From assembly GCA_004298615.1 (NCBI GenBank), contig SCPX01000056.1:6876-70875 (forward strand): 64,000 nucleotides of DNA, written 5' to 3'. Positions 7,787-60,384 of this stretch are shown here, in pieces. The notes below the pieces were generated by a model that saw only the letters and a program-made list of their open reading frames with translations, was not told the origin of the DNA and made no database searches. Positions within the stretch are counted from its first letter, which is position 1, and every line of letters begins with the position of its first letter. The stretch is from Patescibacteria group bacterium. GTDB taxonomy: Bacteria > Patescibacteriota > Patescibacteriia > SCPX01. The position numbers and the translations under genes are program-made.

Positions 7787-7825
7787 TCAAGTAAGCGCTC
7801 AAAGGTTGGTTGAGCGCTTACTTGA
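7787..7825 (+). promoter_or_regulatory. 15-17-bp perfect inverted repeat (caagtaagcgctcaa-N7-ttgagcgcttacttg) immediately 5' of, and abutting, the adhesin start codon
   Basis: The repeat is seen in sequence with no T-run after it. It would sequester the region just upstream of ATG 7827. Confidence 0.4.
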
Positions 7826-7826
7826 G

Positions 7827-10800
7827 ATGAATAAGACTATGAAGATTATAAAGTTTAAAAAAATATTTGCCATAATATCGCTGGCGGCGCAGCTTATTTT
7901 TCAGCCTGTGATCCCCATTTTTGTGCTGGCGCAAGAGGCGGATACGAGTATAGCGCCGCCGCCAAATATCGCTCCGATTGCGGCAGTAAGCGGACCGTCC
8001 TTAATAACGCCGGGCGGAACAGCGCAATTTTCTTCGGCCGGATCATCCGATCCGGACGGTTTTATTTCGGGATTTTCCTGGGATTTTTCTTATGACGGCC
8101 AAACATTCAATATTGAATCAACCGAAGCCAACCCGGCTTATTCATATAAAACTTTCGGCGTTTATACCGCAGCCTTGCAAGCGATTGACAATCAAGGCGC
8201 AGTCAGCAATATTTCAACCGCTTCCATAACCGTAAATTCACCGCCAAAAGTAATAAGAATTGAAATGGAGCCGATACCGGCATATTGGGATTACGAACTG
8301 GACGGAAAATTGCGTTCCTATGATCCGGAAGGGGACGCGATTACGCCCAAACGGCAATGGTATAAAAACGGCATACCGATACCGGGCGCTATCAATCGGC
8401 ATTTGGATCTTTCGTCCTTTACCGATATTCAACCAAATGATGTCTTGACGGTCGCCATATCGGCTTGCGATAAATACGCTTGCAGTCCGCCCTTTACTTC
8501 CGATCCTCTGGCTATTTCAAATTATTTGCCGGAAGCCAAAGCCAACGGGCCTTATTCCGGCTACGCTTTCAAGCCCATAAAATTTTCATCCGCCGGATCA
8601 CTGGACACCGAAGGGCCGATCGCCGGATATGAGTGGGATTTTGATTATGACGGAGAAAATTTTACGGTAGATTCAACGGAAGAAAATCCGGAATTTACTT
8701 ATCAAAAAGGCGGTAAATTCAAAGCGGCTTTGAGAGCGATTGATAAGACGGGAGGAAAAAGCGCAATCAACGCGGCCAGCGTTTCCGTCAATGGCCCGCC
8801 GGTAATCAAAGACATAGTTTTCTTTCCGTCAGATCCTCATTTGGGCGACGATTTAAACGCTTTGCCCGCTGTTTTGGACAGCGATGGAGATCCGGTGACG
8901 CTGAAATACAAATGGAGAAAAAATGGCAATCTGATTCCCGGCGCGGTCGGCGATAATCTGGATTTGGCCATAGGAGGCGATATTCGCAAGGGCGACAGCC
9001 TGGAATTGGAGGCAGAAGCCTGCGATCCTTTTTCGTGTTCGCCTGTTTTCAGATCGGCAAAAATGGTAATTGTTAATAAAACGCCTACTGCCTTGATAGA
9101 CGGCCCGTTTCTTGCCAAGCGCGGCGAGCCGTTGATTCTTGCCGCGCCCGATTCGGGCGACCAAGACGGAGTAATTTCCAAATACGAATGGGATTTGCAT
9201 TATGACGGGAATTCTTTTGACGCGGAATCCGAAGGGCTTTCTCCGCAAATAAATTTTGACGCGATCGGATCATACACTATCGGTTTGCGCGTGACGGACG
9301 ATGAAGGAGCGGTCAGTGAAATCGCCACATCCATTGTCACGGTTTGCGAGCCAAGCGAATGCAGCAAATCAGTTTTAGTCAATAATCATAACGAAGCGTC
9401 TGTTGCCAATAATATTGTCGTGGACGCGTATACGGGAAATAATAATGTTGCCAGAGGAAACGGCGGCGATGTGGGCGATGACGGCCAGGCGGGCAGCGGC
9501 GGGACTGGATTGATTTCAAGCGGCAATGCGGTAGGCGTGGCCAACGCTTCAAATATAGTCAACACCAATCTTATCAATGCGGCCGTGGATCAATCCCATC
9601 AAAATGTTTACGGGATTTATCAAGGTGATTTGAATGTCGCCGGACAATTGGACGCGCTTTCCGGACAATCAGGCGGGACAGGCGACATTTCTCTTTTGAC
9701 CATAAATAATCAAAATTCAGCCGATGTGTCAACAATCATAACGGTCAATGCGGGGACCGGCGGCAATTTATCGGCCGGAAACGGCGCCGTGGCAAATACG
9801 GGCAATGTCCAGGCCGCGGCCAATATTTTCAATTTGGTCAATACCAATGTCGTGGGCGGGAGTTTCTTATTTTCCAGTATGAATGTTTTCGGCGAATGGA
9901 ATGGCGATCTGGTCTTGCCAGGAGATTTGGTTTACACTCTGCAGTCCCAGGGAATAGACATTCTTGAACTCTTGAACAATAATACTTTGGAATTGGAAAA
10001 TATTATCAAAGCCCTGGGCAATACGGGCGATAATTCGGCCGCGGCTCTTGAAGGAGGCGATTCGGAAATTTCCACCGGCCTGGCCCGAGTATTTTCCAAA
10101 GTGTTTAATTTTGCCAACTTGAATATCGTAGGCGGAAATTATCTGCTGTTTATTCCCAATATTCTCGGGCAGTGGAAAGGCAAAGTGATAGACGGGGAAG
10201 ACGGAGATTATAATCTGGCTTTTGTAAAGGAAGGAAAAAAGAAAAAAGTCAAAACCGTGGCGGCCAACGGCAATAAAGCCAAAGTCTCCAACGCGATTTA
10301 CATAAACGGCGATACCGGAGCGAATTCCGCCGGATCGGATAAAAGCAATGCGTCCGTGAATTCCGGACGGGTGGATGTGGTCGCCAATATAATGAATTTC
10401 GTCAATTCAAATTTGGTCAATACCAATATTGTCGTTTCCGTGCTCAATATGTTCGGTTCGTGGAGCGGAAATATCGTGTACGCGTATCCTGATTTGGCCG
10501 CGGCCCTGGATGATGGCGCAGACTTTGTGGCGCCGGGAAACTCATTGATCTATACCGTTGCTTACGGCAATGGCGGAAAAGCCAAAGCCAAAGAAGTGAA
10601 AACATCTTTGACTTTGCCCGAAGGCGTGGTTTATCAATCCAATACCGGCGGCGCGGATCCAGTAATTTCCGGAAATACTTTGACTTGGTCATCGCCGGTT
10701 GTTGCCAACAGCGAAGTGAAATCATTTACCGTGGCTACGACAGTCTCTTCCGATCTTGCGCCCGCTACTGCGACTCTTGAGGCGGTCGTGGCTGTTTCCA

Positions 10801-12167
10801 CGCAGACCAGAGAAAAACGCACGGAAAATAATTTTGCAACCATTCAAACCGCGGTGCAATTTCCGGCAAATGATCCGCCGGCGCCGCCCGGGCCGGATAC
10901 GGGATCGGGAAATCAGCCGCCTGCCGACAATAATGGCACTGATAATATATCAGCTTCTTTGGTGGTGAAAAAATCCAATGACGCCAAAGGATCCAAAGCG
11001 CCGGGTGATACTGTTAATTTTACGGTTTCAGTGGAAAATACGGGGAATGCGTTGATTGATAAAGTCAAAATCGCCGACATTTTGCGCGATCCAAAGGACG
11101 AGAGCCTAAAAAAGAATTATTGGGAAGTCGGCGAAGTGATGCCCGGCGAAGAATTTGAAATTACTTATTCGGTCGCCGTTCCTTCGGACGCTGTGGCCGG
11201 AACCTACACGAATACGGCGCAGGCATCGGGAGTCATTCAAGGCGATGACGCGATTATTTATTCCAATGAAGCGAAAAGTTCATTTTCAGTCAGAGATTCT
11301 CCGCCAAATAATAATGCAAAAGACGGCAATACGGGCGATCAAAATAATCAGTCGGACTTAAATGTTGATTCAGGCAGGACGGGCGGGAATAGTACCGGCG
11401 AAAAAATTTCCGATAAGCTTGAGATTTCAAAGACCAATGATCTGACCGGTCCCATTTTGCCGGGAAGTAAAGTAGGATATTCCATTACGCTGAAAAATAA
11501 TGGCGACAGTACGATAAAAAATATCGTGGTGAGCGACGAATTGGTAAATGGTTTGAGCAAAATAGTGCTGGCGGCCGAAGATTTGCGGGACAAGAAAATA
11601 ACAACTTGGGAGTTTAAGGAATTAAAGCCCGGAGTGGGTTTGCGCATCAGCTATCAATTGGCCATTTCAGGAAACGCGCCGGCCGGCTTTTATACCAATA
11701 CCACTTGGGCCGAAGGGGAGGCGCAGGGCGGCGATAAGGTGTATTCCAATGTGGCTTCTTCAACGATTGAAATTTTATCAATGCTGGGCGTAAATATTCC
11801 GGCCGATTCCGGAGATTTCTTCGGCATTGCCTCGGCTTCGGCCGCGGAAAATATGCTGGGCTTCCCGTCTTTATTTTCTCCGCTTAGGCAAATTGCCGGC
11901 GCGGAGACTTGCCAGAGCTGGCCCCAAAGCATTTGGATTCTAATGTTCCTGCTTTACGCTTCCATCCTCGTCTGGTTTTATTTCTTTGACGGCAAAAAAT
12001 GGAGAGTCGTTTTCCCGTCAGCTTTGACAATCGTGGCCATCGGCCTGTATCTCATTTACGCCTGTCCGGGATCATTCATTTGGTGGCCGATGTCGGTCCT
12101 TGCTTCCGGATTTGTATTGACTGCTCTGGCTATAAATTTTCATCGCAACAGAAGAGCGATGGCTTAA
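7827..12167 (+). CDS. Giant (~1450-aa) cell-surface protein. Its parts are a signal peptide, three or more PKD-like domains interleaved with cadherin-like DxDGD modules, a Gly/Asn-rich repeat region, two DUF11-type repeats and a C-terminal TM anchor.
   Basis: PKD signatures ('FSSAGSSDPDG...FSWDFSYDGQ', 'FSSAGSLDTEG...YEWDFDYDGE', 'PDSGDQDGVISKYEWDLHYDG') are present. DUF11-like motifs ('APGDTVNFTVSVENTGNA', 'PGSKVGYSITLKNNGDS') and C-terminal hydrophobic helices are also present. The start is ambiguous among 7806, 7827 and 7839. Confidence 0.75.
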   Translation: MNKTMKIIKFKKIFAIISLAAQLIFQPVIPIFVLAQEADTSIAPPPNIAPIAAVSGPSLITPGGTAQFSSAGSSDPDGFISGFSWDFSYDGQTFNIESTEANPAYSYKTFGVYTAALQAIDNQGAVSNISTASITVNSPPKVIRIEMEPIPAYWDYELDGKLRSYDPEGDAITPKRQWYKNGIPIPGAINRHLDLSSFTDIQPNDVLTVAISACDKYACSPPFTSDPLAISNYLPEAKANGPYSGYAFKPIKFSSAGSLDTEGPIAGYEWDFDYDGENFTVDSTEENPEFTYQKGGKFKAALRAIDKTGGKSAINAASVSVNGPPVIKDIVFFPSDPHLGDDLNALPAVLDSDGDPVTLKYKWRKNGNLIPGAVGDNLDLAIGGDIRKGDSLELEAEACDPFSCSPVFRSAKMVIVNKTPTALIDGPFLAKRGEPLILAAPDSGDQDGVISKYEWDLHYDGNSFDAESEGLSPQINFDAIGSYTIGLRVTDDEGAVSEIATSIVTVCEPSECSKSVLVNNHNEASVANNIVVDAYTGNNNVARGNGGDVGDDGQAGSGGTGLISSGNAVGVANASNIVNTNLINAAVDQSHQNVYGIYQGDLNVAGQLDALSGQSGGTGDISLLTINNQNSADVSTIITVNAGTGGNLSAGNGAVANTGNVQAAANIFNLVNTNVVGGSFLFSSMNVFGEWNGDLVLPGDLVYTLQSQGIDILELLNNNTLELENIIKALGNTGDNSAAALEGGDSEISTGLARVFSKVFNFANLNIVGGNYLLFIPNILGQWKGKVIDGEDGDYNLAFVKEGKKKKVKTVAANGNKAKVSNAIYINGDTGANSAGSDKSNASVNSGRVDVVANIMNFVNSNLVNTNIVVSVLNMFGSWSGNIVYAYPDLAAALDDGADFVAPGNSLIYTVAYGNGGKAKAKEVKTSLTLPEGVVYQSNTGGADPVISGNTLTWSSPVVANSEVKSFTVATTVSSDLAPATATLEAVVAVSTQTREKRTENNFATIQTAVQFPANDPPAPPGPDTGSGNQPPADNNGTDNISASLVVKKSNDAKGSKAPGDTVNFTVSVENTGNALIDKVKIADILRDPKDESLKKNYWEVGEVMPGEEFEITYSVAVPSDAVAGTYTNTAQASGVIQGDDAIIYSNEAKSSFSVRDSPPNNNAKDGNTGDQNNQSDLNVDSGRTGGNSTGEKISDKLEISKTNDLTGPILPGSKVGYSITLKNNGDSTIKNIVVSDELVNGLSKIVLAAEDLRDKKITTWEFKELKPGVGLRISYQLAISGNAPAGFYTNTTWAEGEAQGGDKVYSNVASSTIEILSMLGVNIPADSGDFFGIASASAAENMLGFPSLFSPLRQIAGAETCQSWPQSIWILMFLLYASILVWFYFFDGKKWRVVFPSALTIVAIGLYLIYACPGSFIWWPMSVLASGFVLTALAINFHRNRRAMA

Positions 12168-28980: not shown

Positions 28981-29128
28981 CGTCGCAATTCAAAATATGT
29001 CGTGCATCAAACGATCGTCACATATACGACATTATTTCTTAAGATTAAAAAATAATACGATATGGATTCATCGAGTAAAAGCAGTTTATGATATGTCGTG
29101 CATCAAACGATCGTCGCATATACGACAA
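28981..29128. repeat. Left ~150-bp direct repeat unit containing two 36-bp palindromes (28997-29032 and 29093-29128) separated by a conserved 'atacgatatggattcatcgagtaaaagcagtttatg' core
   Basis: Seen in sequence. The unit is about 85% identical to unit 31246-31392. The palindrome is ATGTCGTgcatcaaaCGATCGtcacatatACGACAT. Confidence 0.65.
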
Positions 29129-29229
29129 AATTATATTATGCTATAATAAATTAAGGCGAAATAAAAGCGAGAAAAGAAGAGGCGACGGGTGTTTGAATTA
29201 ATAAATTAATAACGCAATTATCAATAATT

Positions 29230-29814
29230 ATGAAAGGCGAAAATAGATTGAAAATATTGGAGTTTCTTGAAAATTCCGGCCAGGCATTAGAGGAATTGTT
29301 TTTTATTTTTACAGTGCCCTACGGCACTTCTTTTCACGGGGCGGAATATCGTTTGAGAAAATTTCGAGAGGAGAGAGAGAATTTAAAAACCCTCAAAAAA
29401 GATAAACGGCGGTTTGATGACTTGATTTATCGTTTGCGCAAAGATGTGTTGATTGATGATATTAAGAGTAAAAAAGGGTCTTTTTTGCGCCTAACGCAAA
29501 GGGGAATAGAAATTTTAAACAAACTGCGCGACAAAAAAGACAAAGCAATGCCTGACGCAAAATATCAAAGCCAAAATGACGATAATTTAAAGATAATTAT
29601 TTTTGATATTCCCGAAGGGGAGAAAAGAAAGCGCGTTTGGCTGCGTTCCGCCCTTAAAAACTTAAATTTTACAATGCTTCAGAAAAGCGTTTGGGCGGGG
29701 AAAAGCAAGCTGCCCCACGAGTTCGCGATAGATTTGAATAAACTGAAAATAATTTCTTATGTAGAAATTTTTGCTATCAGCAAGACCGGAAGCTTGAAGC
29801 AATTAAAATTTTAA
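29230..29814 (+). CDS. PaaX-like transcriptional regulator (wHTH N-terminus plus a PaaX_C/Cas2-fold-like C-terminus)
   Basis: 'KIIIFDIPEGEKRKRVWLRSALKNLNFTMLQKSVWAG' resembles the PaaX C-terminal block. The N-terminal 'LKILEFLENSGQ' is wHTH-like. The family call is by motif only. Confidence 0.45.
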   Translation: MKGENRLKILEFLENSGQALEELFFIFTVPYGTSFHGAEYRLRKFREERENLKTLKKDKRRFDDLIYRLRKDVLIDDIKSKKGSFLRLTQRGIEILNKLRDKKDKAMPDAKYQSQNDDNLKIIIFDIPEGEKRKRVWLRSALKNLNFTMLQKSVWAGKSKLPHEFAIDLNKLKIISYVEIFAISKTGSLKQLKF

Positions 29815-29841
29815 AAAAACAAATCTACCAAGATTCGAACG

Positions 29842-29877
29842 ATGTCGTACATCAGACGATCGTCGCATATACGACAT
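29842..29877. repeat. Third copy of the 36-bp palindrome (atgtcgtacatcagacgatcgtcgcatatacgacat), 30 bp upstream of gene 29908
   Basis: Seen in sequence. Confidence 0.6.
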
Positions 29878-29907
29878 ATCTGAACAGCGTTGTAATCCGA
29901 TGGTATA

Positions 29908-30543
29908 ATGCTAATGAAAAAAAATATGGACAATGAGAATAATCATAATCCCGAGCCTACCCAAGAGATGCCATTGGTTGATATTGGAAAAGATAATCAT
30001 GATCAAACAGATCAGCAAAAAAGAGACGAGCGAATCCTGCAAATTGATCAGGAGTTGGCCGAGTTTTCAGTTAAGGCGCAAACCGAAGACGAGATAAACG
30101 CCGTTCAAATGGAAAGAGATCAAGAATATCAAAACAAAATCCAAGAACTGGAGACGGGCCTGAGCCAGCCGCTTTCCGAAGAAACAAAAGATAAAATTCA
30201 TCAGAATATGGTGGATAGCGTAATCGATCGGGCACGAAGAGTGAATAATAAGTTTGATAATCTGCAGATATTAAGAAATACGGAAAATCTTATTACTAAC
30301 ATGGAATCGCTTGGTGCAAAAATTGACAATAATTCAAGGATTAGGTTGGTAGAGATATTATCTTCGCCTCAGATATTGCATGTTAATAGGCGCGAACTAG
30401 TAAAACTATTTGGAGTTGATGAGAAAGATGACGCATTAGTCAGAAAACTTTATCAACCATTCAATGAAAAGTACGGGAAATTATTAAAAGAATGGTTGAT
30501 AAAAGAAAATAAATTTTTTTCTCCAAATCAGAAATTAAATTAA
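29908..30543 (+). CDS. Hypothetical acidic coiled-coil protein (211 aa)
   Basis: The ORF has coding-like composition. No TM helix and no recognised motif. Confidence 0.45.
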   Translation: MLMKKNMDNENNHNPEPTQEMPLVDIGKDNHDQTDQQKRDERILQIDQELAEFSVKAQTEDEINAVQMERDQEYQNKIQELETGLSQPLSEETKDKIHQNMVDSVIDRARRVNNKFDNLQILRNTENLITNMESLGAKIDNNSRIRLVEILSSPQILHVNRRELVKLFGVDEKDDALVRKLYQPFNEKYGKLLKEWLIKENKFFSPNQKLN

Positions 30544-30584
30544 CCGGAAATCAAGAAGTTCAAATCAATGGCGAAACGATAGAT

Positions 30585-31226
30585 ATGGCGGAACTTAATG
30601 ATTCTAAGATTTCTGAACTAGGAATAAAAAAAATTAAACGAATTATAGATGGAATCATTAATGACAATGAAAGTACTGCCGGACAAGGTATGTTCTGGAA
30701 TGTTTTGGTGCCAAAAGAAATACCTTTTGTTTTAAAGACTGAGCGCAAGCTTTATGATGAAAGTCAGGAAAAATACAGAAGAAAATCACTATTACAATAC
30801 CCGATTATTAGAGATAGTATAGGAAAAGAATTTTTACCTAAACAAGCTGTTTTGCTGGCGCACGATTCAGAACGATTTTATGTTTTGCAAGAAAAAATGC
30901 CATTGCAAAAAATGACAAGTATTAGAAATAAAAATATTGATTCAGTTATTGCTGGTGATTACGGACAGGAAATTGTAAACGCTTTGAGCGAAGAGAAAAA
31001 TAAAGAAAAATTGAGGGAATTTATTTCCGGAGTTGAGCGTCTCTATAAAGATCATAAACTAATAATTGATACGGTTGGGGATAATTTATTTTTTAATGTT
31101 TCCGAAGGCGGTGATTTGAATATAAAGCTGGTGGATTACGGCGCCTTCAAACAGCGTGGGGATGTCCCAAATAGTGACATAAAAGAAGTGCTAGTGTTTT
31201 TAGAAAAATTGACGAATTTATTATAG
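30585..31226 (+). CDS. Small atypical protein-kinase-like protein (RIO/Bud32/Kdo-kinase-like size, no activation segment)
   Basis: A Gly-loop-like 'STAGQGMFWNVLV' is followed by 'VLK' (beta-3 Lys). 'LIIDTVGDNLFF' resembles a catalytic loop (D...N), and 'IKLVDYGAF' is DFG-like. This is an inference from motifs only. Confidence 0.4.
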   Translation: MAELNDSKISELGIKKIKRIIDGIINDNESTAGQGMFWNVLVPKEIPFVLKTERKLYDESQEKYRRKSLLQYPIIRDSIGKEFLPKQAVLLAHDSERFYVLQEKMPLQKMTSIRNKNIDSVIAGDYGQEIVNALSEEKNKEKLREFISGVERLYKDHKLIIDTVGDNLFFNVSEGGDLNIKLVDYGAFKQRGDVPNSDIKEVLVFLEKLTNLL

Positions 31227-31245
31227 GCGAACTTTTTTTTTGAAT

Positions 31246-31392
31246 TACTGCAATTCAAAATATGTCGTAGATCTACCAATCGTCACATATACGACATTAT
31301 TATCTTGAGATTAAAAAAATACGATATGGATTCATCGGGTAAAAGCAGTTTATGGTAAGTCATACATCAGCCGATCGTCATATATACGACAT
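31246..31392. repeat. Right ~150-bp direct repeat unit, with palindrome copies at 31262-31297 and a degenerate one at 31357-31392
   Basis: Seen in sequence. Together with 28981-29128 it brackets the three-gene cassette. Confidence 0.65.
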
Positions 31393-31540
31393 TTTTACCG
31401 ACTTATTTCATGACATAACTTTTATAATATTTGGTCGCACATTGTGCGATCGCTTCATCTGCGACTAGAATTATTTTGCCCCCATTTGTTTTTTTATAAT
31501 TTAATAGTATAATGAAAAAATATTTGTTTGATTTGAAATC

Positions 31541-32476
31541 ATGCCGATTGTTGAAGTAAAAAATTTATCCAAATATTATCCCAAGCCCGATAATCCGAAA
31601 GAAAAATTCGCGGCCGTGGATGATGTTTCATTTGAAATAAAAGAAGGGGAGACTTTTGGCATTCTGGGGCCGAACGGCGCGGGCAAAACCACGACTTTGG
31701 AAATGCTTGAGGGATTGAAAGTTATTGAAAAAGGGGAAGCGCTTGTCTCTGGAATTTCCGTAAAAAACGATCCGATGAGAGTGAAACAGATAATCGGGGT
31801 CCAGCTCCAGGAAAGCCATTATTTTGATTTTTTAAAACTCAAAGAATTGCTTGATTTGTTCGGAGAATTTTATCATCGCAAAATTGACGGCCTGGAATTG
31901 CTTCGCGAAGTCCAGCTGGAAGATAAAAAAGCGGCTTATACCAGGCAATTATCCGGTGGACAAAAACAGCGCCTCTCCATCGCTTCGGCTCTGGTCAATG
32001 ATCCCAAAGTGCTTTTTTTGGACGAACCGACCACGGGCTTGGATCCGCAAGCCAGGCATAATTTGTGGGATTTGGTGAAAAAAATAAAAGCCAAGGGGAA
32101 AACAATCGTCTTGACCACGCATTATATGGAAGAGGCGCAAATCTTATGCGATCGCTTGGCGATTATGGATCATGGAAAAATAATCGCGCTGGACACGCCG
32201 GATAATCTTGTGAATAAATACGCCCCGATATCGCATATTATTATAAAAACGGATCAGCCGCTGCCAGACGAAGAATTGAAGAATATTCCGCATGTTCAAA
32301 GCATATCATCAGAAAACGATTTTTATGATTTTTGGGTAAGCAATCCGGAAGAGGTTTTACTGCGCTTGGTGGAATTTGCTAAATCGCGCGGCATTAAAAT
32401 TTTATCACTGCGCGTTGAGCGGTCTACTTTGGAAGATGTTTTTTTGAGCTTGACGGGAAGAGAATTAAGAGATTGA
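31541..32476 (+). CDS. ABC transporter ATP-binding protein (ABC-2/DrrA-like)
   Basis: It has a Walker A motif ('GPNGAGKTT'), the ABC signature ('LSGGQKQRLSIA') and a Walker B motif ('LFLDEPTTGLD'). Confidence 0.85.
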   Translation: MPIVEVKNLSKYYPKPDNPKEKFAAVDDVSFEIKEGETFGILGPNGAGKTTTLEMLEGLKVIEKGEALVSGISVKNDPMRVKQIIGVQLQESHYFDFLKLKELLDLFGEFYHRKIDGLELLREVQLEDKKAAYTRQLSGGQKQRLSIASALVNDPKVLFLDEPTTGLDPQARHNLWDLVKKIKAKGKTIVLTTHYMEEAQILCDRLAIMDHGKIIALDTPDNLVNKYAPISHIIIKTDQPLPDEELKNIPHVQSISSENDFYDFWVSNPEEVLLRLVEFAKSRGIKILSLRVERSTLEDVFLSLTGRELRD

Positions 32477-32480
32477 ATTT

Positions 32481-33575
32481 ATGACTTTATTTAAACTCAC
32501 CATTGCCAATATCAAAATGTATTTGCGCGATCGGCAGGCGCTTTTTTGGGCATTCTTTTTTCCTTTGCTTTTAATGACGGTATTCGGGGTGATGAATTTT
32601 GAAGGATCGGGAAAATTAACATTGGGAGTGGTCAATCTTTCGCCATCGCCCGCGGCTGGCGAATTTGTCAGTTCGTTGGAAAAAAGCGAATCGCTGGACA
32701 TCAAAAAAGATTCCAGAGAAAACGAAGAAGCGGCGCTCAAGAAAGGGGACAGGGACGCGGTGATGATTTTGCCGGAAGATTTTCTGGCCGATCCGGCGAA
32801 AACCTCGCCTTACACAATCAAAGTTTTGGTCAATAAAGGGCGGCCCCAGCAGAGTAGTACGGCCTTGTCCGTGCTCGGCAGTATTTTTTCCGAAATGGAA
32901 AGAAATATGACGCAAAAGCCGAAATTATTCGCCATTGAAACCGAGGATGTGGTGGCGCGCAATTTGCGGTATATTGATTTTGTGGTGCCTGGGGTGGTCG
33001 CTCTTTCCATTATGCAGCTTTCCATTTTCGGGATCGGCTTTACCATTGTTGAATACAAACGCAAAGGTGTGATGAAGCGGCTTTTTGTCACACCTTTGAA
33101 ACCGCTTGATTTCACATTATCCCATGTGATTATGCGCTTGCTTGTTTCAATATTTCAAGTGAGTATTTTATTTGCCGTGGCGATTTTGGTTTTCAATGTT
33201 AATGTGCTCGGCAGTTTTGCCGCTTTGTATTTTTTCGTAATATTGGGCGGGCTTTTATTTTTAAGCTTTGGTTTCGCCCTGGCCGGCATTTCCAAGACCG
33301 AAGACGCTTTGCAAGGATTGACCCAAGTATTTGTTTTTCCTCAAATGTTTTTGGGTAATGTATTTTTTTCCACCGACGCGATGCCGGAATGGCTTCAAAA
33401 GATTGTAGTATATATGCCTTTGAATTATTTGTCGGACGCGATTCGGAAAATTTCCACCGAAGGCACTGGGCTGATGGATCTTCAAAAAGATATTTTGGGA
33501 ATTTCGGTCTGGATAATCATCGGCTTTGTCTTAGCCATTAAACTCTTCCGCTGGCGCGAAGCGGCGAATAGTTAG
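32481..33575 (+). CDS. ABC-2 family transporter permease
   Basis: It has six predicted TM helices and the ABC-2 motif region ('FVFPQMFLGNVFFS'). It follows the ATPase with a 4-nt gap. Confidence 0.75.
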   Translation: MTLFKLTIANIKMYLRDRQALFWAFFFPLLLMTVFGVMNFEGSGKLTLGVVNLSPSPAAGEFVSSLEKSESLDIKKDSRENEEAALKKGDRDAVMILPEDFLADPAKTSPYTIKVLVNKGRPQQSSTALSVLGSIFSEMERNMTQKPKLFAIETEDVVARNLRYIDFVVPGVVALSIMQLSIFGIGFTIVEYKRKGVMKRLFVTPLKPLDFTLSHVIMRLLVSIFQVSILFAVAILVFNVNVLGSFAALYFFVILGGLLFLSFGFALAGISKTEDALQGLTQVFVFPQMFLGNVFFSTDAMPEWLQKIVVYMPLNYLSDAIRKISTEGTGLMDLQKDILGISVWIIIGFVLAIKLFRWREAANS

Positions 33576-33613: not shown

Positions 33614-33688
33614 CGCGGGGTGGAGAAGTGGCATCTCGTCGGGCTCATAACCCGAAGATCGGCCGTTCGAATCGGCCCCCCGCAACCA
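33614..33688 (+). tRNA. Initiator tRNA-fMet (anticodon CAT), with CCA encoded
   Basis: A manual cloverleaf fold works. The D-stem is GAGA/TCTC with A11:U24. The anticodon stem is TCGGG/CCCGA with three consecutive G:C pairs at 29-31:39-41. The anticodon loop is CTCATAA and the T-arm is GGCCG-TTCGAAT-CGGCC. The C1xA72 mismatch confirms the initiator identity. Confidence 0.8.
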
Positions 33689-33729: not shown

Positions 33730-33803
33730 GGCTGGGTAGCTCAGTTGGTTAGAGCGAAGGACTCATAAGCCTTAGGTCGTGGGTTCGATTCCCACCCCAG
33801 CTA
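33730..33803 (+). tRNA. tRNA with CAT anticodon, probably elongator tRNA-Met (tRNA-Ile2/lysidine not excluded)
   Basis: The acceptor is GGCTGGG/CCCAGCT (G1:U72 wobble). The D-arm is GCTC..GAGC with GG. The anticodon loop is CTCATAA. The T-arm is GTGGG-TTCGATT-CCCAC, the discriminator is A, and CCA is not encoded. Confidence 0.75.
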
Positions 33804-33807
33804 CTAG

Positions 33808-49557: not shown

Positions 49558-50061
49558 ATGGAATCAATCATTGAAACATTTCATCTTGATTGGAAATTAT
49601 TTTTAGCCCAAGCGGTGAATTTCACCATTGTGGCGGTGGTTTTGTGGCGCTTTGCTTTCAAGCCGTTGGCGAAAAATCTGTCCGAACGGACCAAAACCAT
49701 TGAAAAAAGCCTGAAGCAAGCCAAGGAAATCGCGGAACAAAGAGAAGAGATGCTGAAATTGCGCGAACAGGCCGTGCTGGAAGCGCAGATTGAAGCCAAA
49801 AAAGTGATTGATGAGACCAGCAATAAGATGAAAGAATACGAAGAACAGATGCGGATTAAAACGCAAAATCAAGCGGAAGTTATTTTAACCAAAGCCAAGT
49901 CCGATATTCAGGAAGAGAAAGGAAAAATGTTGAGCGAGGTCAGACAAGAAGCGGCCGATTTGGTGGTAATGGCTTTGGAAAAAGTTTTGCAGGAAAAAGT
50001 CACGGCCGATTTGGATAAAAAATTGGCGGAAAAAGCGGTTAATAGCATTGCGACGAATTAA
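49558..50061 (+). CDS. atpF: F0 ATP synthase subunit b
   Basis: An N-terminal TM helix is followed by a long charged helix. Confidence 0.8.
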   Translation: MESIIETFHLDWKLFLAQAVNFTIVAVVLWRFAFKPLAKNLSERTKTIEKSLKQAKEIAEQREEMLKLREQAVLEAQIEAKKVIDETSNKMKEYEEQMRIKTQNQAEVILTKAKSDIQEEKGKMLSEVRQEAADLVVMALEKVLQEKVTADLDKKLAEKAVNSIATN

Positions 50062-50066
50062 TTATT

Positions 50067-50456
50067 ATGAAAAAAATAAATGCAAAACATTACGCTCAAG
50101 CGCTTTCCAGAATTTCCGGCGCTCCGGATTTAAGCGTTGTTTTGGATAATTTTTTTAACTTGGTTCGGAAAAACGGCCAATTGTCCGGATTGGGAGAAAT
50201 ATTAAGCGAATACGAACGCATAGCGCTGGAAAAAAAAGAAGGTATTGCCGCGGATTTGTCAGTGGCTGCTTCGGAGAATAAGACAATAATCACGGAGATG
50301 ATTAAACGGATAAAAATTCCCGGCATTGAAAAATTTAAAATTACCGCCAGAGACGACAAAGATCTTTTAGGCGGATTTAAATTACGCGTCAGGGATATTT
50401 TGATAGACGCCGGCTTAAAGAAAAAAATTACTGACCTTAAGAAATCATTTAATTAG
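50067..50456 (+). CDS. atpH: ATP synthase subunit delta (OSCP), short form
   Basis: Assigned by position between atpF and atpA, with the OSCP-like C-terminus '[16 protein letters not shown]'. Confidence 0.6.
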
Positions 50457-50457
50457 T

Positions 50458-51975
50458 ATGCCCAATGACGAACGGATTATCCGGTATTTACAAGAAAAAA
50501 TCAATCAATTCGCGCCTAAAACTGAAATTGAGCGCGTAGGCACCGTGACCGAAGTGGCTGACGGCGTGGCAAGAATAGACGGACTATCTAACGCGGCGGC
50601 CAGTGAAATGCTTGAATTTATCACCAAAGACAACGAAGTTATAAATGGAATGGTTTTGAACCTGGAAGAAGATTCGGTCGGCGCCATGATTCTCGGAGAT
50701 TACGCCAAAATAAAAGAAGGCGATACGGTCAAATCAACCGGCCGGATTTTATCAATTCCGGTGGGCGATGAATTGCTTTCACGGGTGATTGATCCTTTGT
50801 GCAATCCCGTGGACGGCCGGGGACAGATAGAATCGTCAAAATACTATCCGGTTGAGAAAAAAGCGCCCGGGGTGATTGAGCGCGAATCCGTGAAAAGCCC
50901 GCTCCAGACCGGCATCAAGGCCGTTGATACGATGATTCCGATCGGCCGGGGGCAGCGGGAATTGATTATTGGCGACAGGCAGACCGGAAAATCCCAAATC
51001 GCCATTGATACGATTATTAATCAAAAAGGGCAAAATACGATTTGCATTTATGTGGCGATCGGGCAAAAAGAATCAAAAATCGCGCGCATCGCGGCCAGAT
51101 TGGAAGAAGCGGGAGCTATGGATTACACGATTGTGGTGGTGGCGGGCGCGTCTGATCCGGCGCCGCTTTCTTTTCTCGCGCCGTATTCCGGCTGCGCCAT
51201 TGGAGAATATTTTATGGATCAGGGAAAAGATGTTTTGATCGTGTATGACGATCTTTCCAAACACGCGACAAGCTACCGGCAGGTATCTCTGATTTTGCGA
51301 CGGCCCCCCGGCAGGGAAGCATACCCGGGCGATGTTTTTTATCTGCACTCCAGGCTTTTGGAAAGGTCTTGCAAATTATCCAAAGAATTGGGCGGGGGGA
51401 GTATCACCGCTTTGCCGATTATTGAAACGCAAGCCGGCGATGTATCCGCTTATATTCCGACCAATGTTATTTCCATAACGGACGGCCAGATATATCTTGA
51501 AGGCGACCTTTTTTATCAAGGAGTGCGGCCGGCCGTCAATGTGGGTCTTTCCGTTTCCCGCGTGGGATCGGCGGCGCAGACCAAAGCAATGAAAAAAGTG
51601 GCCGGAAAAATCCGCTTGGAATTGGCGCAATATCGGGAATTGGCGGCGTTCGCGCAATTTGCGTCCGATCTTGACGAGACGACCAAGAAACAAATTGAGC
51701 GGGGAAAAAGATTGGTGGAAGTATTGAAGCAAGACCAATTCAGTCCGATGTCAATGGAGCATCAGGTAGCCATAATTTACGCGGCTATAAACAGTTATAT
51801 TGATGATGTGGCGGTTGAGAAAGTGAAGGACTTTGAAAATCAGTTTCATTCTTATCTTGACGCGAGTTTCGGAGGCTTGATGAAAAAACTGGGAGAACAA
51901 AAAGAGCTTACACCGGAAATTGAAAAGGAATTAAAAAAAGCGATAGAGGTTTTTAAAAAAGTTTATGGCCAGTAA
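50458..51975 (+). CDS. atpA: ATP synthase subunit alpha
   Basis: It has a Walker A motif ('GDRQTGKS') and the 'ITDGQIYLE' motif. Confidence 0.95.
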
Positions 51976-52861
51976 TACGCGCCAAATCAGAAGGCAAATC
52001 AAATCCATTAAAAATACGGCGAAAATTACGCGCGCGATGGAAATGATTTCAGCCGTTAAGCTGCAAAAAACTCAAGCGCAGGCTTTGGCTTCACGCGCTT
52101 ATTCGCTTGCCGCCAAAGAAATTCTGGAAAAGCTCACTCTGGGCATTGAAACAAGCGAGCATCCTTTTTTCATCGAGCGGCCGATAGAGCGAATCGGCAT
52201 TATCGTAATGTCGTCCAATCGCGGATTGTGCGGAAGCCTGAACGGCAATATTTTGAAAACCGTTTTGGATTATGAAAAAAATATTTTAGTGAATTTTCCC
52301 GGCGCTGAAATTTCTTACATTACAATGGGAAAAAAAATTCGCGACAGCCTGGCCAGGCTTGGAAAAAATATTTTAGCCGATTTTCCCAAACCGGACATCG
52401 CTTTGAATAGTTTGCCGGCCGTCCCATTGGCGAATTTGGCGGTTGAGGAATTTTCCAAGAAAAATCTGGATCGCGTGGTTATGATTTTTCCCGAATCAGT
52501 TTCAATCGTTAATCAAAAACCGATCGTTTTGCAGCTTTTGCCTCTGGCGTATGAATTTGCCGAAGAAGCGGCCGAAAAAGAAGCTGAAAAAAAACGCCGC
52601 ATTTCTTATATTTTTGAGCCGACCAAAGAGGAGATTTTGGGGCAAGCGCTCGTGAGACTTTTAGAAACGCGGGTTTTTCAATCGCTTTTGGAAGCCAATG
52701 CCGCGGAGCACGCGGCCAGAATGGTGGCTATGAAAAACGCGACCGACAGCGCCAAGGATTTGGTTGACGATCTGACGCTTTTTTACAACCGCACCCGCCA
52801 AGCCGCGATCACTCAAGAAGTATCGGAAATCACTTCGGGACGGTTGGCGCTTGAAAATTAA
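51965..52861 (+). CDS. atpG: ATP synthase subunit gamma
   Basis: The gamma-subunit N-terminus '[26 protein letters not shown]' is present. It overlaps atpA by 11 nt. Confidence 0.9.
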
Positions 52862-52892
52862 ATATGATTTATATTTAAATACTTAATACTAA

Positions 52893-54293
<1,401 letters not shown>

Positions 54294-54302
54294 AGTGGTA
54301 AT

Positions 54303-54725
54303 ATGTCAAAGAAGATCCATTTTCAAATAGTCACGCCGGAAAAAGTCGCGTATAAGGATGATGTTGATTCTATTACTTTGTCTACGCAAATAGGAGAAAT
54401 TACCGTTTTGCCGGATCACGCGCCTTTGATTTCATCTTTAAAATCAGGCGAGGCGATTATCAAAAAAGACGGAGAGGAATTAAGCATTGCCGTTTCCGGA
54501 GGATTTCTTCAAATCCAGCCGAAAAATAGAGCGGTGGTATTGGCGGATGCGGCCGAGCGGGCCGAAGAAATTTCCGAAGAGCGGGCCGAGGAAGCGAGGA
54601 AGCGGGCCGAAGAAATTTTAAAAGAAAAAAGATTGGATAAGGCCGAAATGGCCACGGCCGCCGCCGCTTTGGAAAAATCGTTAATACGATTAAAAGTCGC
54701 GCGGAGGCGGACCGGAAGACGCTAA
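54303..54725 (+). CDS. atpC: ATP synthase subunit epsilon
   Basis: It has an N-terminal beta-sandwich and a C-terminal helical hairpin. Confidence 0.85.
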   Translation: MSKKIHFQIVTPEKVAYKDDVDSITLSTQIGEITVLPDHAPLISSLKSGEAIIKKDGEELSIAVSGGFLQIQPKNRAVVLADAAERAEEISEERAEEARKRAEEILKEKRLDKAEMATAAAALEKSLIRLKVARRRTGRR

Positions 54726-55274: not shown

Positions 55275-57326
55275 TTGGATATGCAAGAATTAATATTGTC
55301 TCAAACTGTTTTTTTCGCCGTATTGGCGTTGTTTGGCTTGGGAGCGATATCCTCTTTATTTTTCAGAAAAGATGATAAGTTGGCGAATTTAGCCGGAAGT
55401 TTTTTCGCCATTTTAGGATCGCTTTTAGGAATTGTTTACGCGGTTGCCGCCCTGTATTCCGATACATCGATTTTTTATGAGATGAAATCATCTTTTCCCT
55501 TGTTGTCATATAATTTCAATATAGATCGGCTCGCCGCGTTTTTTATTTTCATAATTTCCTTGATCTCGCTTTTTTGTTCAATTTATGGCGCAGGTTACAT
55601 AAAACATTTTTACGGAAAATACAATATCGGCACGCTTGGATTTTTTTACAATCTTTTTATCGCGGGAATGCTTTTGGTCGTCTCTTCCTCTAATATTTTA
55701 TTTTTCCTCATTGCCTGGGAAATAATGTCTTTGGCGTCTTATTTTCTGGTTATTTACGAACGGGACAAGCAGGAAAATATAAAAGCCGGATTTCTGTATT
55801 TTGTAATGACGCATATTGGCACCGCTTTTATAATTTTGGCGCTTTTATTGCTGTATAAGTTCGCCGGATCTTTTGATTTTTTGGCGATAAAAGAAGCCGT
55901 CGGGAGTATTCCGCCGCTTGCGAAAGACGCGATTTTTATTCTCGCTTTTATCGGTTTCGGCACAAAAGCGGGAATTATCCCAATGCATATCTGGCTGCCC
56001 GCCGCTCATCCGGCCGCGCCGTCCCATGTTTCCGCCTTGATGTCCGGCGTGATGATCAAGACCGGAATTTATATGATGATTCGTATATTTTTTGATATTC
56101 TGCCAAATGCTCCGGTTTGGTGGGGAACGGTGATTTTAATTTGCGGCGCCACTTCGGCTCTTTTAGGAGTTTTGTACGCGCTTACCGAGCATGACATCAA
56201 AAGACTTTTGGCTTATCACAGCATAGAAAATATCGGCATAATTCTTTTGGGTCTGGGCTCTGCTCTGGTTTTTGCAGCACTTAATATGAAATCGTTTGCG
56301 GCACTGGCTCTTATTGCTTCTCTTTTTCATATTTTAAACCACGCTGTTTTTAAGTCGCTTTTATTTTTGGGCGCCGGATCAGTGATTTCAAAAACTCATA
56401 CGAGAAATATTGAAGAATACGGCGGACTCATCAAACATATGCCGCAGACTGCGCTGTTTTTTCTGGCCGGATCAATGGCTATCTCCGCTCTTCCGCCTTT
56501 CAACGGTTTTTTCAGCGAATGGCTGACATTTCAAGCGCTGTTTGAAGGAATAAAATCAATGAGCTCGTTTTATCGCTGGATTTTTGTTTTTTCAGCCGGA
56601 TCTTTGGTCCTGACAAGCGGTTTGGCGCTGGCTTGTTTTGTTAAGGCCTTTGGTCTGACATTTTTGGCCCGACCGAGAAGCGAGGCAGTAAAGCACGCCA
56701 AAGAATCCTCATTTTCTTTGAGGCTCGGAATGGCGACTTTGGCGGTTTTATGTTTGCTTCTTGGCTTGTTATCAGGATTTTTATTCGCGATTTTTAATAA
56801 GATATTGCAAGGCATAAAATCTTTCGGCGATTATGATCCGGCGCTGGTTGTTTCGCAAAATCATCTCATCAGCGTCAACGGCGGATTTTCCTCAATTTCC
56901 GCTCCGGCGATTTTTGCCGTATTGATTTTGGCCGGTATTGCCGCGTTCGCGATAATCCGCTTAATTTCAAAAGATCAAAAAGTAAAAATCGGCGCCACTT
57001 GGGATTGCGGGACAAATCTCGGTCCCAGAATGGAAATCACTTCCACCGGATTTTCCCGGACGATTATTATGATTTTTAAAGGAATATTAAAGCCGAGCAA
57101 ACAAGCGGGGATTGAATATTCTGACGCCAATATGAGATATTTCCCAAAATCAAGAACTATGGTTTTTGAGATAAGTGATGTTTACAAAAAATATTTTTAC
57201 AAGCCGCTTTATAGTTTTGTTTTTAAAATTTCCGCGCGAGTCAAAAAAATACAAAGCGGCAATGTCAATGCCTATGTTTTATACATCTTTATGGCTTTGA
57301 TATTATTGCTGTTTTTCGCGGTTTAA
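55275..57326 (+). CDS. NuoL/MrpA/HyfB-like antiporter-type membrane subunit
   Basis: It is 683 aa with a Proton_antipo_M core ('WLPAAHPAAPSHVSALMSGVMIKTGIY'). Confidence 0.75.
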   Translation: MDMQELILSQTVFFAVLALFGLGAISSLFFRKDDKLANLAGSFFAILGSLLGIVYAVAALYSDTSIFYEMKSSFPLLSYNFNIDRLAAFFIFIISLISLFCSIYGAGYIKHFYGKYNIGTLGFFYNLFIAGMLLVVSSSNILFFLIAWEIMSLASYFLVIYERDKQENIKAGFLYFVMTHIGTAFIILALLLLYKFAGSFDFLAIKEAVGSIPPLAKDAIFILAFIGFGTKAGIIPMHIWLPAAHPAAPSHVSALMSGVMIKTGIYMMIRIFFDILPNAPVWWGTVILICGATSALLGVLYALTEHDIKRLLAYHSIENIGIILLGLGSALVFAALNMKSFAALALIASLFHILNHAVFKSLLFLGAGSVISKTHTRNIEEYGGLIKHMPQTALFFLAGSMAISALPPFNGFFSEWLTFQALFEGIKSMSSFYRWIFVFSAGSLVLTSGLALACFVKAFGLTFLARPRSEAVKHAKESSFSLRLGMATLAVLCLLLGLLSGFLFAIFNKILQGIKSFGDYDPALVVSQNHLISVNGGFSSISAPAIFAVLILAGIAAFAIIRLISKDQKVKIGATWDCGTNLGPRMEITSTGFSRTIIMIFKGILKPSKQAGIEYSDANMRYFPKSRTMVFEISDVYKKYFYKPLYSFVFKISARVKKIQSGNVNAYVLYIFMALILLLFFAV

Positions 57327-57335
57327 TGGAATAAT

Positions 57336-58265
57336 ATGGAAAATATAATCAACTGGACAATTCAAATTTTGCTCTTGCCGGCCTTGTCGCCGCTCTGTGT
57401 CGGCATTATCAGAAAAATAAAAGCGCGCTTTCAAAATCGCCAAGGAGCGAGCGTTTTTCAGCCATATAATGATCTGTGGAAGCTTTTTCATAAAGACGAG
57501 GTGATAAGCTCTGACGCTTCCTGGATATTCCGTTTCGCGCCGTTTGCGATTTTTGGAGCGACTTTGGCAGTCTCGGCCAGTCTTCCGATTTTCGCCTCGT
57601 TTTTGTCAAATAATTTCACGAGCGATATTTTAGCGGTTATTTATATTCTGGCGATCGGTACTTTTTTCTTGGCGCTCGCCGGATTGGATGTCGGGGGAGC
57701 TTTCGGGGGATTTGGTTCAAGCCGGGAGATGACCGTGTCGGCGCTGGCCGAAGGCGGACTTTTATTTTCATTGCTCGTCCTTTCTTTCATGAGCGGAACG
57801 ACTAACCTTTTTTCAATTTCCGGCACCATTGATTCTTTGCCTCTCGCGTCTCTCTTGCCGGTTGTTCTGGCATTCTTGGGATTCTTTATCGTTTTATTGG
57901 CGGAGACGGCCCGCTTTCCTTTTGACAATCCGTCCACTCATCTTGAGCTTACGATGATCCACGAAGCGATGATAATTGAATATTCCGGAAAGCGGCTTGC
58001 CCTGATTGAATGGGCATCGGCCAATAAGCTGTTAATTTTCATAACGCTCGGCTCAAGTCTGTTTTTCCCAATAGGCATTGCCCATTCCATGGGCGTGATC
58101 GCGATAGCCGCCGCTATTTTATTTTATCTTTTGAAAGTCCTGGTTTTTTGCGTAGCCGTCGCCATTATTGAATCCGGCATTGCCAAACTTCGTCTTTTTC
58201 GGCTTCCGGATTTGCTGCTTTTTTCTTTTATTTTAAGCGTTATCGCCCTTGGTTTGATAATTTAA
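57336..58265 (+). CDS. NuoH/HycD-like membrane subunit
   Basis: Its N-terminus 'IRKIKARFQNRQGASVFQPYNDLWKLF' matches the HycD/NuoH 'RxGPxxxQxxxDxxKL' block; it has about 8 TM helices. Confidence 0.75.
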   Translation: MENIINWTIQILLLPALSPLCVGIIRKIKARFQNRQGASVFQPYNDLWKLFHKDEVISSDASWIFRFAPFAIFGATLAVSASLPIFASFLSNNFTSDILAVIYILAIGTFFLALAGLDVGGAFGGFGSSREMTVSALAEGGLLFSLLVLSFMSGTTNLFSISGTIDSLPLASLLPVVLAFLGFFIVLLAETARFPFDNPSTHLELTMIHEAMIIEYSGKRLALIEWASANKLLIFITLGSSLFFPIGIAHSMGVIAIAAAILFYLLKVLVFCVAVAIIESGIAKLRLFRLPDLLLFSFILSVIALGLII

Positions 58266-58268
58266 AAT

Positions 58269-58931
58269 ATGATTGACGCGATGAACAATTCATTTTTTCA
58301 ATTTACGGCAATCACGGCGGTTTTTTTGTCAGCCGTGCTGCTCCATATTACGAAAAGAAATTCAACTGCGGTCTCCTTGTATTTTATCCAATCGCTCGCC
58401 GTGGCCGCTTTGCTTTTCCGGCCGCTGTTTGAAAATTTCTCTTTGGCCGTTCTGCTGATGGCCGGATTGACTTTGGCGATAAAAGCCGCAGTCGCGCCGC
58501 TTTTCTTTTCAAGATTGATCAAAAGACATCAATTGAAATTTTCCGCCAGCACTTATTTGAATACGCCGCTGACTTTGATCGTCATAGCCGCTCTTGCCGC
58601 GCTGACCAATTCTCGGATTTTTTCCCACATCGCGTCGATTGATCCGGACAATAAAAAAATATTGGGACTGGCTATTGCCGTGATCCTCGTATCTTTTTTT
58701 CTGATCATCAATCGCAAAGGCGCCGTGTCGCAAATCATCGGGATTCTGTCGCTGGAGAACGGGATCGTCGCTTTTGCTTTGTTTTCCGGACTGGAACAAT
58801 CGCCGGCGCTCCAAATCGGCGTGATATTTGATCTTTTTGTCTGGGTGATTATTGCCGCCGTTTTTATTTCAATGATCTATAAGCAATTCGGTTCGCTTGA
58901 TGTGACCGAACTGAAGCATTTGAAAGAATAA
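58269..58931 (+). CDS. HyfE-like small membrane subunit (NuoK-related)
   Basis: Its 220-aa size and position match hyfE. It has 6-7 TM helices; motif support is weak. Confidence 0.5.
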   Translation: MIDAMNNSFFQFTAITAVFLSAVLLHITKRNSTAVSLYFIQSLAVAALLFRPLFENFSLAVLLMAGLTLAIKAAVAPLFFSRLIKRHQLKFSASTYLNTPLTLIVIAALAALTNSRIFSHIASIDPDNKKILGLAIAVILVSFFLIINRKGAVSQIIGILSLENGIVAFALFSGLEQSPALQIGVIFDLFVWVIIAAVFISMIYKQFGSLDVTELKHLKE

Positions 58932-58934
58932 TTT

Positions 58935-60383: not shown

Positions 60384-60384
60384 T

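Follow-up and report, generated by a model that had tools for sequence, protein, structure and literature searches.

The 64,000-nucleotide stretch of Patescibacteria DNA analysed here (the window; GenBank assembly GCA_004298615.1, contig SCPX01000056.1) encodes a small PaaX-like regulator, gene 1, between lgt and an ATP-binding cassette (ABC) transporter. Gene 1 most likely encodes a truncated repressor of the PaaX type, present as several paralogues per genome, with operators on both sides of its own gene. Six palindromic sites at this locus, O1 to O6, are most likely the putative operators of the regulator. Judging from sequence comparison, we regard it as reasonably probable that the locus comprises an autorepressor with its cognate operators, which would also control a split kinase-like gene and probably an ABC exporter. 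The locus thus has the appearance of a few genes under common control, and nothing points to a mobile or defence cassette having been inserted. An initial annotation of this DNA had proposed either an inserted module with att-like repeats or a tightly autoregulated accessory system. The second proposal is largely right for the regulator and its sites, and it also holds for their wider family, which was encountered here in Patescibacteria alone and in which the same layout recurs in 58 of 67 loci whatever the neighbouring genes.

Gene 1 (29230-29814, plus strand) encodes a 194-residue mini-PaaX protein with a winged helix and a Cas2-like PaaX_M domain. Pfam assigns it to PaaX_M (PF20803; 8.1e-12, 45.5 bits, cutoff 24), with CRISPR_Cas2 scoring 23.4 against a cutoff of 23.8 and a weak match to the helix-turn-helix family HTH_45 (0.052). 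The NCBIfam model TIGR01573 (cas2) gives 25.1 bits, just above its cutoff of 24.5, and the PaaX equivalog TIGR02277 gives 18.7 bits, far below its cutoff of 264.55. The AlphaFold model (predicted local distance difference test score, 83.5) comprises helices at residues 4-71 and a beta-hairpin wing at 75-88, and runs from this winged helix through a connecting helix into a ferredoxin-like Cas2 fold. The best PDB hits of this model in Foldseek are E. coli PaaX (8a39) and Rv0674, followed by PadR and MarR winged helices and Cas2. Matches to actinobacterial PaaX-family regulators were obtained with tblastn, and a PDB sequence search with the regulator profile returned nothing meaningful. The domain descriptions of the initial annotation, which named a PaaX/Cas2-fold winged-helix protein, a coiled coil and a mini kinase-like protein, are borne out.

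PaaX of E. coli and Pseudomonas (PDB 8a39, 3l09) shares the N-terminal winged helix and Cas2-like middle domain with gene 1, and is its best PDB fold match. PaaX is about 305-316 residues long, whereas gene 1 ends at residue 194, right after the Cas2-like domain, and lacks the C-terminal helical domain, to which the PaaX literature assigns ligand binding. PaaX is a phenylacetyl-CoA-responsive repressor of paa genes. In contrast, no paa genes were found in the window, where gene 1 has lgt, the kinase-like gene and the ABC exporter as neighbours, or in the related loci, where the neighbours are diverse housekeeping genes, and several paralogues occur per genome. In the literature collection searched, no paper brings PaaX together with Cas2, with a winged helix plus Cas2, or with the Candidate Phyla Radiation (CPR).

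The C-terminal domain of gene 1 resembles Cas2 in its beta-alpha-beta-beta-alpha-beta fold and its motifs ([FY]DI...R.R...LQ.SVW). The Cas2 signature motifs are retained across the regulator family, including the invariant Asp after strand 1, and PADLOC returns Cas2 matches at 3e-6. It differs from Cas2 in being fused to a winged helix. Moreover, the 64 kb lack CRISPR-like arrays, and none of the neighbouring genes is cas1. Several homologue records are labelled 'CRISPR-associated endonuclease Cas2'. For annotation, the lack of cas1 and of a CRISPR array nearby makes this label appear mistaken here; a score just above the NCBIfam cas2 cutoff would account for it.

Four of the six putative sites lie in two repeat units. 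Unit A (28981-29128, plus strand) lies upstream of the regulator and unit B (31246-31392, plus strand) upstream of the ABC transporter. Their alignment has 126 of 149 identical columns, or 84.6%, in agreement with the direct repeats of about 85% identity reported initially, and the similarity ends at both edges, beyond which identity falls to ~35-40%. Each unit contains two copies of a 34-36-bp quasi-palindrome, TGTCGT-N7-ACGATCGT-N7-ACGACA. The initial annotation had described two 36-bp palindromes per unit; there are indeed two copies, of 34-36 bp, but they are only partly palindromic, with 8-10 of 13 arm positions paired, whereas perfect 32-mers occur in other lineages. The hairpin energies of the window copies are weak, at -2 to -12.6 kcal/mol.

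With up to three mismatches allowed, five copies of the pattern were counted in the 64 kb, where shuffled sequence predicts 0, and all five lie at this locus in one orientation. O1 (28995-29032, core pattern 28998-29031) and O2 (29094-29127) match the pattern exactly and make up unit A together with a 61-nt spacer. This unit is collinear with the related loci L009 and L010, and O1 is kept in L001-L005, L009, L010 and L014. O3 (29843-29876), again an exact match, starts 29 nt past the regulator stop codon. In unit B, O4 (31263-31296) has two mismatches and the degenerate O5 (31358-31391) has three; L009, L010 and L011 also have O4 in front of the ABC transporter. O6 (31434-31465) is a diverged site of the form GTCGCACATTGTG-CGATCG-CTTCATCTGCGAC, also upstream of the transporter; apart from it and the five copies above, no CGATCG-centred element of the 64 kb has arms that match. 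No second regulator paralogue able to use O6 was found in the window. Between lgt and the ABC transporter, no intergenic region is without at least one site, so that the sites are not merely two repeats bracketing a cassette. Generic promoter elements and dispersed repeats of the repetitive extragenic palindrome (REP) type were considered and rejected, as the pattern is absent from the remaining ~61 kb and related loci usually carry two copies per 10 kb.

The same arrangement is found throughout the regulator family. A word-indexed search identified 195 homologues of gene 1 at E <= 1e-3, the best 120 of which share 42-93% identity with it, and a PaaX_M domain is precomputed for nearly all homologues. 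Scanning species-representative genomes yielded 139 relatives, with at most four per metagenome-assembled genome (MAG). The record titles name Patescibacteria lineages or unclassified 'bacterium' MAGs. The mini-PaaX family was encountered here only in Patescibacteria MAGs, from which the related loci (numbered with the prefix L) are drawn, and several paralogues occur per genome.

In a motif-free comparison of 250 nt before with 160 nt after each regulator gene, a palindrome of ~32 nt was common to both flanks in 58 of the 67 loci. These palindromes usually have 13-16 of 16 positions paired, against a background mode of 9-10. Their core, ACGA|TCGT, is near-invariant (1.3-1.9 bits per position), and their arms are variable and lineage-specific. 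Mostly there are exactly two copies within ~10 kb; a few loci have a third or fourth, and these extra copies are always intergenic. The two copies of one unit share an arm identity of 0.85. Between loci, arm identity is 0.93 where the proteins are at least 80% identical, 0.78 at 60-80% and ~0.4 below that, and paralogues within one MAG have unrelated arms (mean identity 0.43), with the exception of the pair L050/L063. This joint divergence of arms and protein is the behaviour expected of co-evolving protein-site pairs. L050 and L063 (MAG CAYICF01) encode paralogues of 64% identity with an arm identity of 0.92; their near-identical palindromes may reflect cross-regulation or a recent duplication of sites.

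Homologues of 80-83% identity have two palindromes upstream and one just past the stop codon in a different genomic context, with a giant surface protein upstream and DUF3467, phosphatase and pentose-phosphate genes downstream. Further locus-specific palindromes occur 1-4 kb from the regulator (L064:9049, L066:9112, L028:790 and 6357, L032:4482, L048:3411, L080:6558), several of them between convergent gene ends. In L028 and L032, the extra palindromes flank a neighbouring convergent gene, giving the order palindrome, regulator, palindrome, gene, palindrome.

Predicted promoters, which are consensus matches only, place the sites where a repressor would be expected. An extended -10 box, TGcTATAAT (29139-29147, plus strand), is the putative regulator promoter, and the same box lies 14 nt past O2 in L001. 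Across the family, -10-like hexamers are enriched 3' of upstream copies relative to downstream copies (14 against 2 at +15 to +19, 14 against 3 at +30 to +39). Together with the TGcTATAAT box, which O2 likewise precedes by 14 nt in the window, this enrichment indicates that the upstream site covers the -35/spacer region, a repressor's position. The best promoter-like site in the region (29881-29909, plus strand; TGAACA, 17-nt spacer, TATAAT, with TG; 10 of 12 positions) is predicted to serve genes 2 and 3, and O3 lies directly upstream of it.

We infer both binding and the sign of regulation from this layout. The gene 1 protein would bind the 34-36-bp dyad as a dimer in which, as in PaaX, the Cas2-like domains probably pair. 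Bound at O2, over the -35/spacer region, and at O1, 96 bp upstream, the protein would repress its own promoter. From O3, it would control genes 2 and 3. Palindromes upstream of the ABC transporter are found in the window and in L009-L011, and by its position behind O4, O5 and O6 the ABC-2 exporter is a probable further target. The locus would then form a small local regulon, in which the 150-bp repeat would be the regulator's own double-operator region, duplicated in this lineage before the exporter. Where no promoter follows, the downstream copy could act as a loop anchor or roadblock. There is a precedent in PaaX, which recognises a long dyad, TGATTC-N27-GAATCA, and is a repressor of its own promoter (PMC9493321); the corresponding outer blocks here read TGTCGT-N22-ACGACA. 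Unlike the PaaX operator, the site has an extra near-invariant central ACGATCGT block, and sites lie on both sides of the gene.

Several observations weigh against autorepression through conventional operators. When the two copies of a unit are compared, 60 positions have changed on both arms, where 28.5 ± 3.9 are expected from a permutation null that keeps the rates per locus and per position, and 0 of 5000 permutations reach 60. A naive expectation of ~5 compensatory changes was discarded as too low; the permutation value is still far below 60. Furthermore, 40 of the 43 double changes that start from a complementary pair stay complementary, against ~40% by chance. Such coupled changes are not predicted if each half-site of a homodimer operator is read independently; they would fit a correction of quasipalindromes templated by hairpins, or a protein that recognises DNA in folded form. 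The downstream copy is also present where the next gene is long and convergent (L048, L061, L035, L070 and L016), and some extra copies lie between convergent gene ends. The downstream copy is therefore not simply the operator of the next gene. No common target emerged from a Pfam census of 37 downstream genes, which are heterogeneous housekeeping genes. Finally, the regulator genes are consistently richer in AT than their neighbours, including at third codon positions (7.9 GC points and 11 points of third-position GC below them on average, in 36-38 of 37-39 loci among L014-L083). Amino-acid composition alone does not explain this offset, which hints at accessory status or low expression.

DNA-repair genes recur among the 37 co-directional downstream genes (L014-L082), with two to three GIY-YIG/UvrC genes, a methylpurine glycosylase and a DNA alkylation repair enzyme, alongside AlaRS, LepA, YchF and Sua5. 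The numbers of repair genes are too small for an association.

An alternative that takes up these observations is that the palindromes act as folded DNA, in the form of hairpins or cruciforms, at which the Cas2-fold protein nicks, recombines or processes DNA at replication. The gene and its sites would then constitute a self-contained, possibly selfish or occasionally mobile unit, with transcriptional control secondary or absent. We consider this unlikely, although several features speak for it. Self-complementarity is maintained through the two-fold excess of coupled changes, the palindrome centre is conserved while the arms vary freely, palindromes occupy both sides of the regulator whatever the orientation of the neighbouring genes, and the low GC content and retained Cas2 motifs described above would suit such a unit. 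Homology between the window and L001 spans exactly O1 to O3 and no further, and close orthologues occur in unrelated contexts (the window locus compared with L001 and L004; L075 compared with L083, at 91% identity).

On the other side, synteny is held on both flanks in most orthologous pairs at 60-87% identity, with few exceptions, and no identical or near-identical regulator copies occur within a genome, where paralogues are at most ~64% identical. Each locus has two to five sites, and none lie elsewhere in the 64 kb. No relative was found on a viral contig, and the plasmid matches are distant actinobacterial PaaX regulators only. The arms of the window copies pair poorly, yet three sequence blocks are kept, as would be expected of a protein reading duplex DNA. 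Moreover, hairpin-templated correction of quasipalindromes can generate symmetry, and could have done so here without any function in the fold.

REP sequences with their RAYT transposases, the ends of IS200/IS605 elements and the attC sites of integrons resemble this system in their flanking palindromes, in complementarity conserved above sequence and in a conserved core. They differ in that no Y1/HUH transposase or integrase is present here, and the two to five copies per locus are not dispersed. Here both flanks also carry the same sequence, co-diverging with the protein, and synteny is mostly stable. A related proposal, to which we give still less credence, is that palindrome, gene and palindrome form an undescribed, Patescibacteria-wide class of self-contained elements, whose winged-helix/Cas2-fold protein would recognise its own pair of structure-forming palindromes, with their invariant CGATCG centre and co-evolving arms, and would act on DNA there by nicking, recombination or boundary formation, beyond simple repression. 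If this were true, such activity could also explain why the neighbouring cargo differs between the window and L009, as described below.

It is very unlikely that the palindromes act at the level of RNA, as hairpins in the 5' and 3' untranslated regions of the regulator mRNA that would serve as terminators, stability elements or targets of translational autoregulation through the Cas2 fold, which resembles an RNA recognition motif. One copy does lie on each side of the open reading frame (ORF), complementarity is maintained, the perfect 32-nt palindromes of other lineages would fold into stable hairpins, and several upstream copies end 10-20 nt before the start codon. However, the mismatch types show no strand bias (48 G.T against 51 A.C), and T5 runs are rare after the palindromes, at 3 of 57 for the downstream copies and 1 of 50 for the upstream ones, with no terminator-like site called at the palindromes. 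The absence of mismatch bias and of T-tracts argues against RNA hairpins and intrinsic terminators alike. In both the window and L001, O2 precedes the -10 box, which puts O1 and O2 outside the transcript of that promoter, and the window copies fold weakly. At gathering thresholds, Rfam finds two tRNAs only in the window and no family that matches the palindromes, and we rejected structured RNA as the main explanation.

The genes controlled by the putative repressor would include the kinase-like gene downstream. Gene 2 (29926-30543, plus strand, following the NCBI gene model; 29908 is the start in the ORF list) encodes an acidic coiled coil and a helical 'SSPxI..R.EL' module. Its 205-residue product, P0126, aligns to residues 1-210 of family members with 420-450 residues. 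The gene 3 frame (30513-31226, plus strand) comprises a linker (30513-30584) and a protein-kinase-like domain of 213 residues that starts at the ATG at 30585. In-frame translation upstream of this ATG gives IFFSKSEIKLTGNQEVQINGETID, which is homologous to the linker in P0130 and P0003. These two proteins read through the junction, whereas gene 2 ends in the other frame just past a run of seven T (30514-30520, plus strand). One added T restores an ORF of ~439 codons, and the conceptual 439-residue fusion can be aligned over its whole length to full-length members, with which it shares 27-47% identity. On these alignments, a frameshift has divided a single gene of ~435 codons into genes 2 and 3, so the repeats bracket two genes, together with the additional site O3, and not exactly three as initially described. 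On this single contig, which carries the locus tags EPN15_03455 and EPN15_03460, the break may be a real mutation, an assembly error or slippage.

Gene 3 has few close relatives, and an exhaustive profile search found 56 family representatives. Most are 420-450 residues long, with the kinase-like domain at ~210-440. The domain has the bilobal kinase fold and no family match in Pfam, NCBIfam or PADLOC. The D-x4-N and DYG motifs noted initially are invariant in the alignment of the gene 3 domain (D162 and N167; D184-G186), and in the full-length alignment, K277 (the Lys of 'VLK'), D388, N393 and D410-Y-G412 are conserved at 90% or more. Gene 3 thus shares with RIO kinases, NleH/OspG, type II PI4K and WaaP the beta-3 Lys and the D-x4-N and D[FY]G motifs, and its domain is nearly equal in size (~210 residues) to OspG and NleH. 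In contrast to these atypical kinases, an acidic coiled coil and a helical module precede the domain, and the gene is split here.

Comparison with close relatives reveals that part of this gene has been exchanged. L009-L011 (87-92% nucleotide identity) are collinear with the window in two stretches. The first begins at the end of lgt and stops at 30278, taking in the two upstream palindromes, the regulator, the third palindrome and ~123 codons at the start of gene 2. The second begins at ~31200, contains a palindrome and reaches into the ABC transporter. The sole replaced segment, 30279-31199, ends inside gene 2 and ~60 nt before unit B. In its place, L009 encodes another C-terminal region and a 485-codon ORF with a family 2 glycosyltransferase (GT2) domain. 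A remnant of the kinase-like gene, its final ~35 nt (…LEKL.NLL*), persists in L009 before the palindrome that precedes the ABC transporter, and the kinase-like version is therefore probably ancestral. At that position L009 has only the equivalent of O4, where the window has a full double-site copy; unit B is therefore a lineage-specific duplication of unit A.

The first ~120 residues of gene 2, acidic and coiled-coil (29926-30278), are ~70% identical in P0127, P0128 and P0129. At least three C-terminal continuations follow this shared N-terminus, namely the kinase-like domain, an unknown domain with GT2, and early termination. Gene 2 thus has a modular, 'polymorphic' architecture with a recombination breakpoint inside the ORF. 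The alternative cargo is split too (L009:1234-3620, also in L010 and L011), as P0127 (258 residues) and the 485-codon GT2 ORF appear to be one longer ORF; the C-terminus of P0129 (370 residues, on a 1.4-kb contig) matches the N-terminus of the GT2 ORF. This split occurs in nine contigs from several samples and is therefore not a one-off assembly error. In sample SRR22388208, P0130 (L012:385-1071) is a gene-2-like protein that stops right after the linker and is preceded by a gene for an XRE-type helix-turn-helix protein of 65 residues. P0002, on a short contig of the same sample (L008:6-958), is a stand-alone kinase-like domain that starts beside a transposase helix-turn-helix fragment. An insertion sequence may have split the same gene in another organism.

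The exchanged segment also bears on the proposal that three accessory genes, possibly a defence or toxin-regulator system, form an inserted cassette, with lgt and the ABC transporter on either side and the 150-bp repeats as att-like ends. In its favour, the direct repeats do exist, the genes have no relation to the housekeeping genes beside them, close relatives differ in part of the content, and the GC content of the segment is 34.7% against 43.8% for the window. The variable segment, however, does not end at the repeats; L009-L011 keep unit A, the regulator, O3 and the site before the transporter, and the full unit B belongs to the window lineage only. Where the regulator occurs in unrelated contexts, it has the same palindromes beside it, Pfam and NCBIfam identify no integrase or recombinase among genes 1-3 and their neighbours, and the family-wide low GC of regulator genes, which is not a local trait, accounts for part of the dip. 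PADLOC (PADLOC-DB 2.0), consulted for the resemblance to defence modules suggested initially, returns only matches to the Cas2 domain of gene 1, while genes 2 and 3 have no match. A phage or plasmid origin was also rejected, since viral contigs yielded no relative, plasmids only the distant regulators named above, and the kinase-like domain is absent from the phage collection. On the collinearity with L009-L011, the inserted cassette appears largely refuted, and we attach hardly any probability to it.

The initial annotation was correct in naming lgt, the ABC transporter and the tRNAs as flanking genes. Upstream, there are DsbD-like and DsbA-like genes besides lgt (Pfam LGT, 8e-47). Downstream, the ABC-2 type exporter (31541-33575, plus strand) consists of an ATPase (31541-32476; ABC_tran, DrrA1-3_C) and a permease (32481-33575; ABC2_membrane_3). 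A metagenome scan with the ATPase recovered only distant transporters (at most 66% identity) without lgt or the regulator nearby. Two tRNA-Met (CAT) genes (33614-33688 and 33730-33804), 42 nt apart, follow directly after the permease; this pair may comprise an initiator and an elongator tRNA, or a tRNA-Ile2 precursor.

Elsewhere, the window encodes a 1453-residue protein (7806-12167) with PKD, DUF11 and DUF7507 repeats that is probably a large surface protein. The regulator loci L001 and L004 adjoin giant CarboxypepD_reg/FG-GAP surface proteins. Directly after the F-type ATP synthase operon (49558-54725) and before ComEC (61960-63477) lies a cluster resembling complex I/Mrp or a group 4 hydrogenase (55275-61953), with two Proton_antipo_M genes, a NuoH-like gene and a fused NuoC-NuoD. 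Respiratory-type modules such as this one are, to our knowledge, uncommon in Patescibacteria.

Patescibacteria have tiny genomes with few recognisable regulators, and we know of almost no experimental work on their transcription control; literature searches combining Patescibacteria, palindrome and transcription factor turned up only unrelated work. The gene 2/3 product is a rare combination of a coiled coil with a minimal kinase-like domain, and in a close relative a module with a glycosyltransferase takes the place of its C-terminal part. We speculate that this exchange may bear on interactions between CPR bacteria and their hosts. The upkeep of dyad symmetry and the site past the stop codon go beyond the textbook repressor model. 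Since each paralogue has its own 32-36-bp palindrome, which can be read from the flanks of its gene, the family provides predicted protein-site pairs that could be tested in vitro without culturing the organisms.

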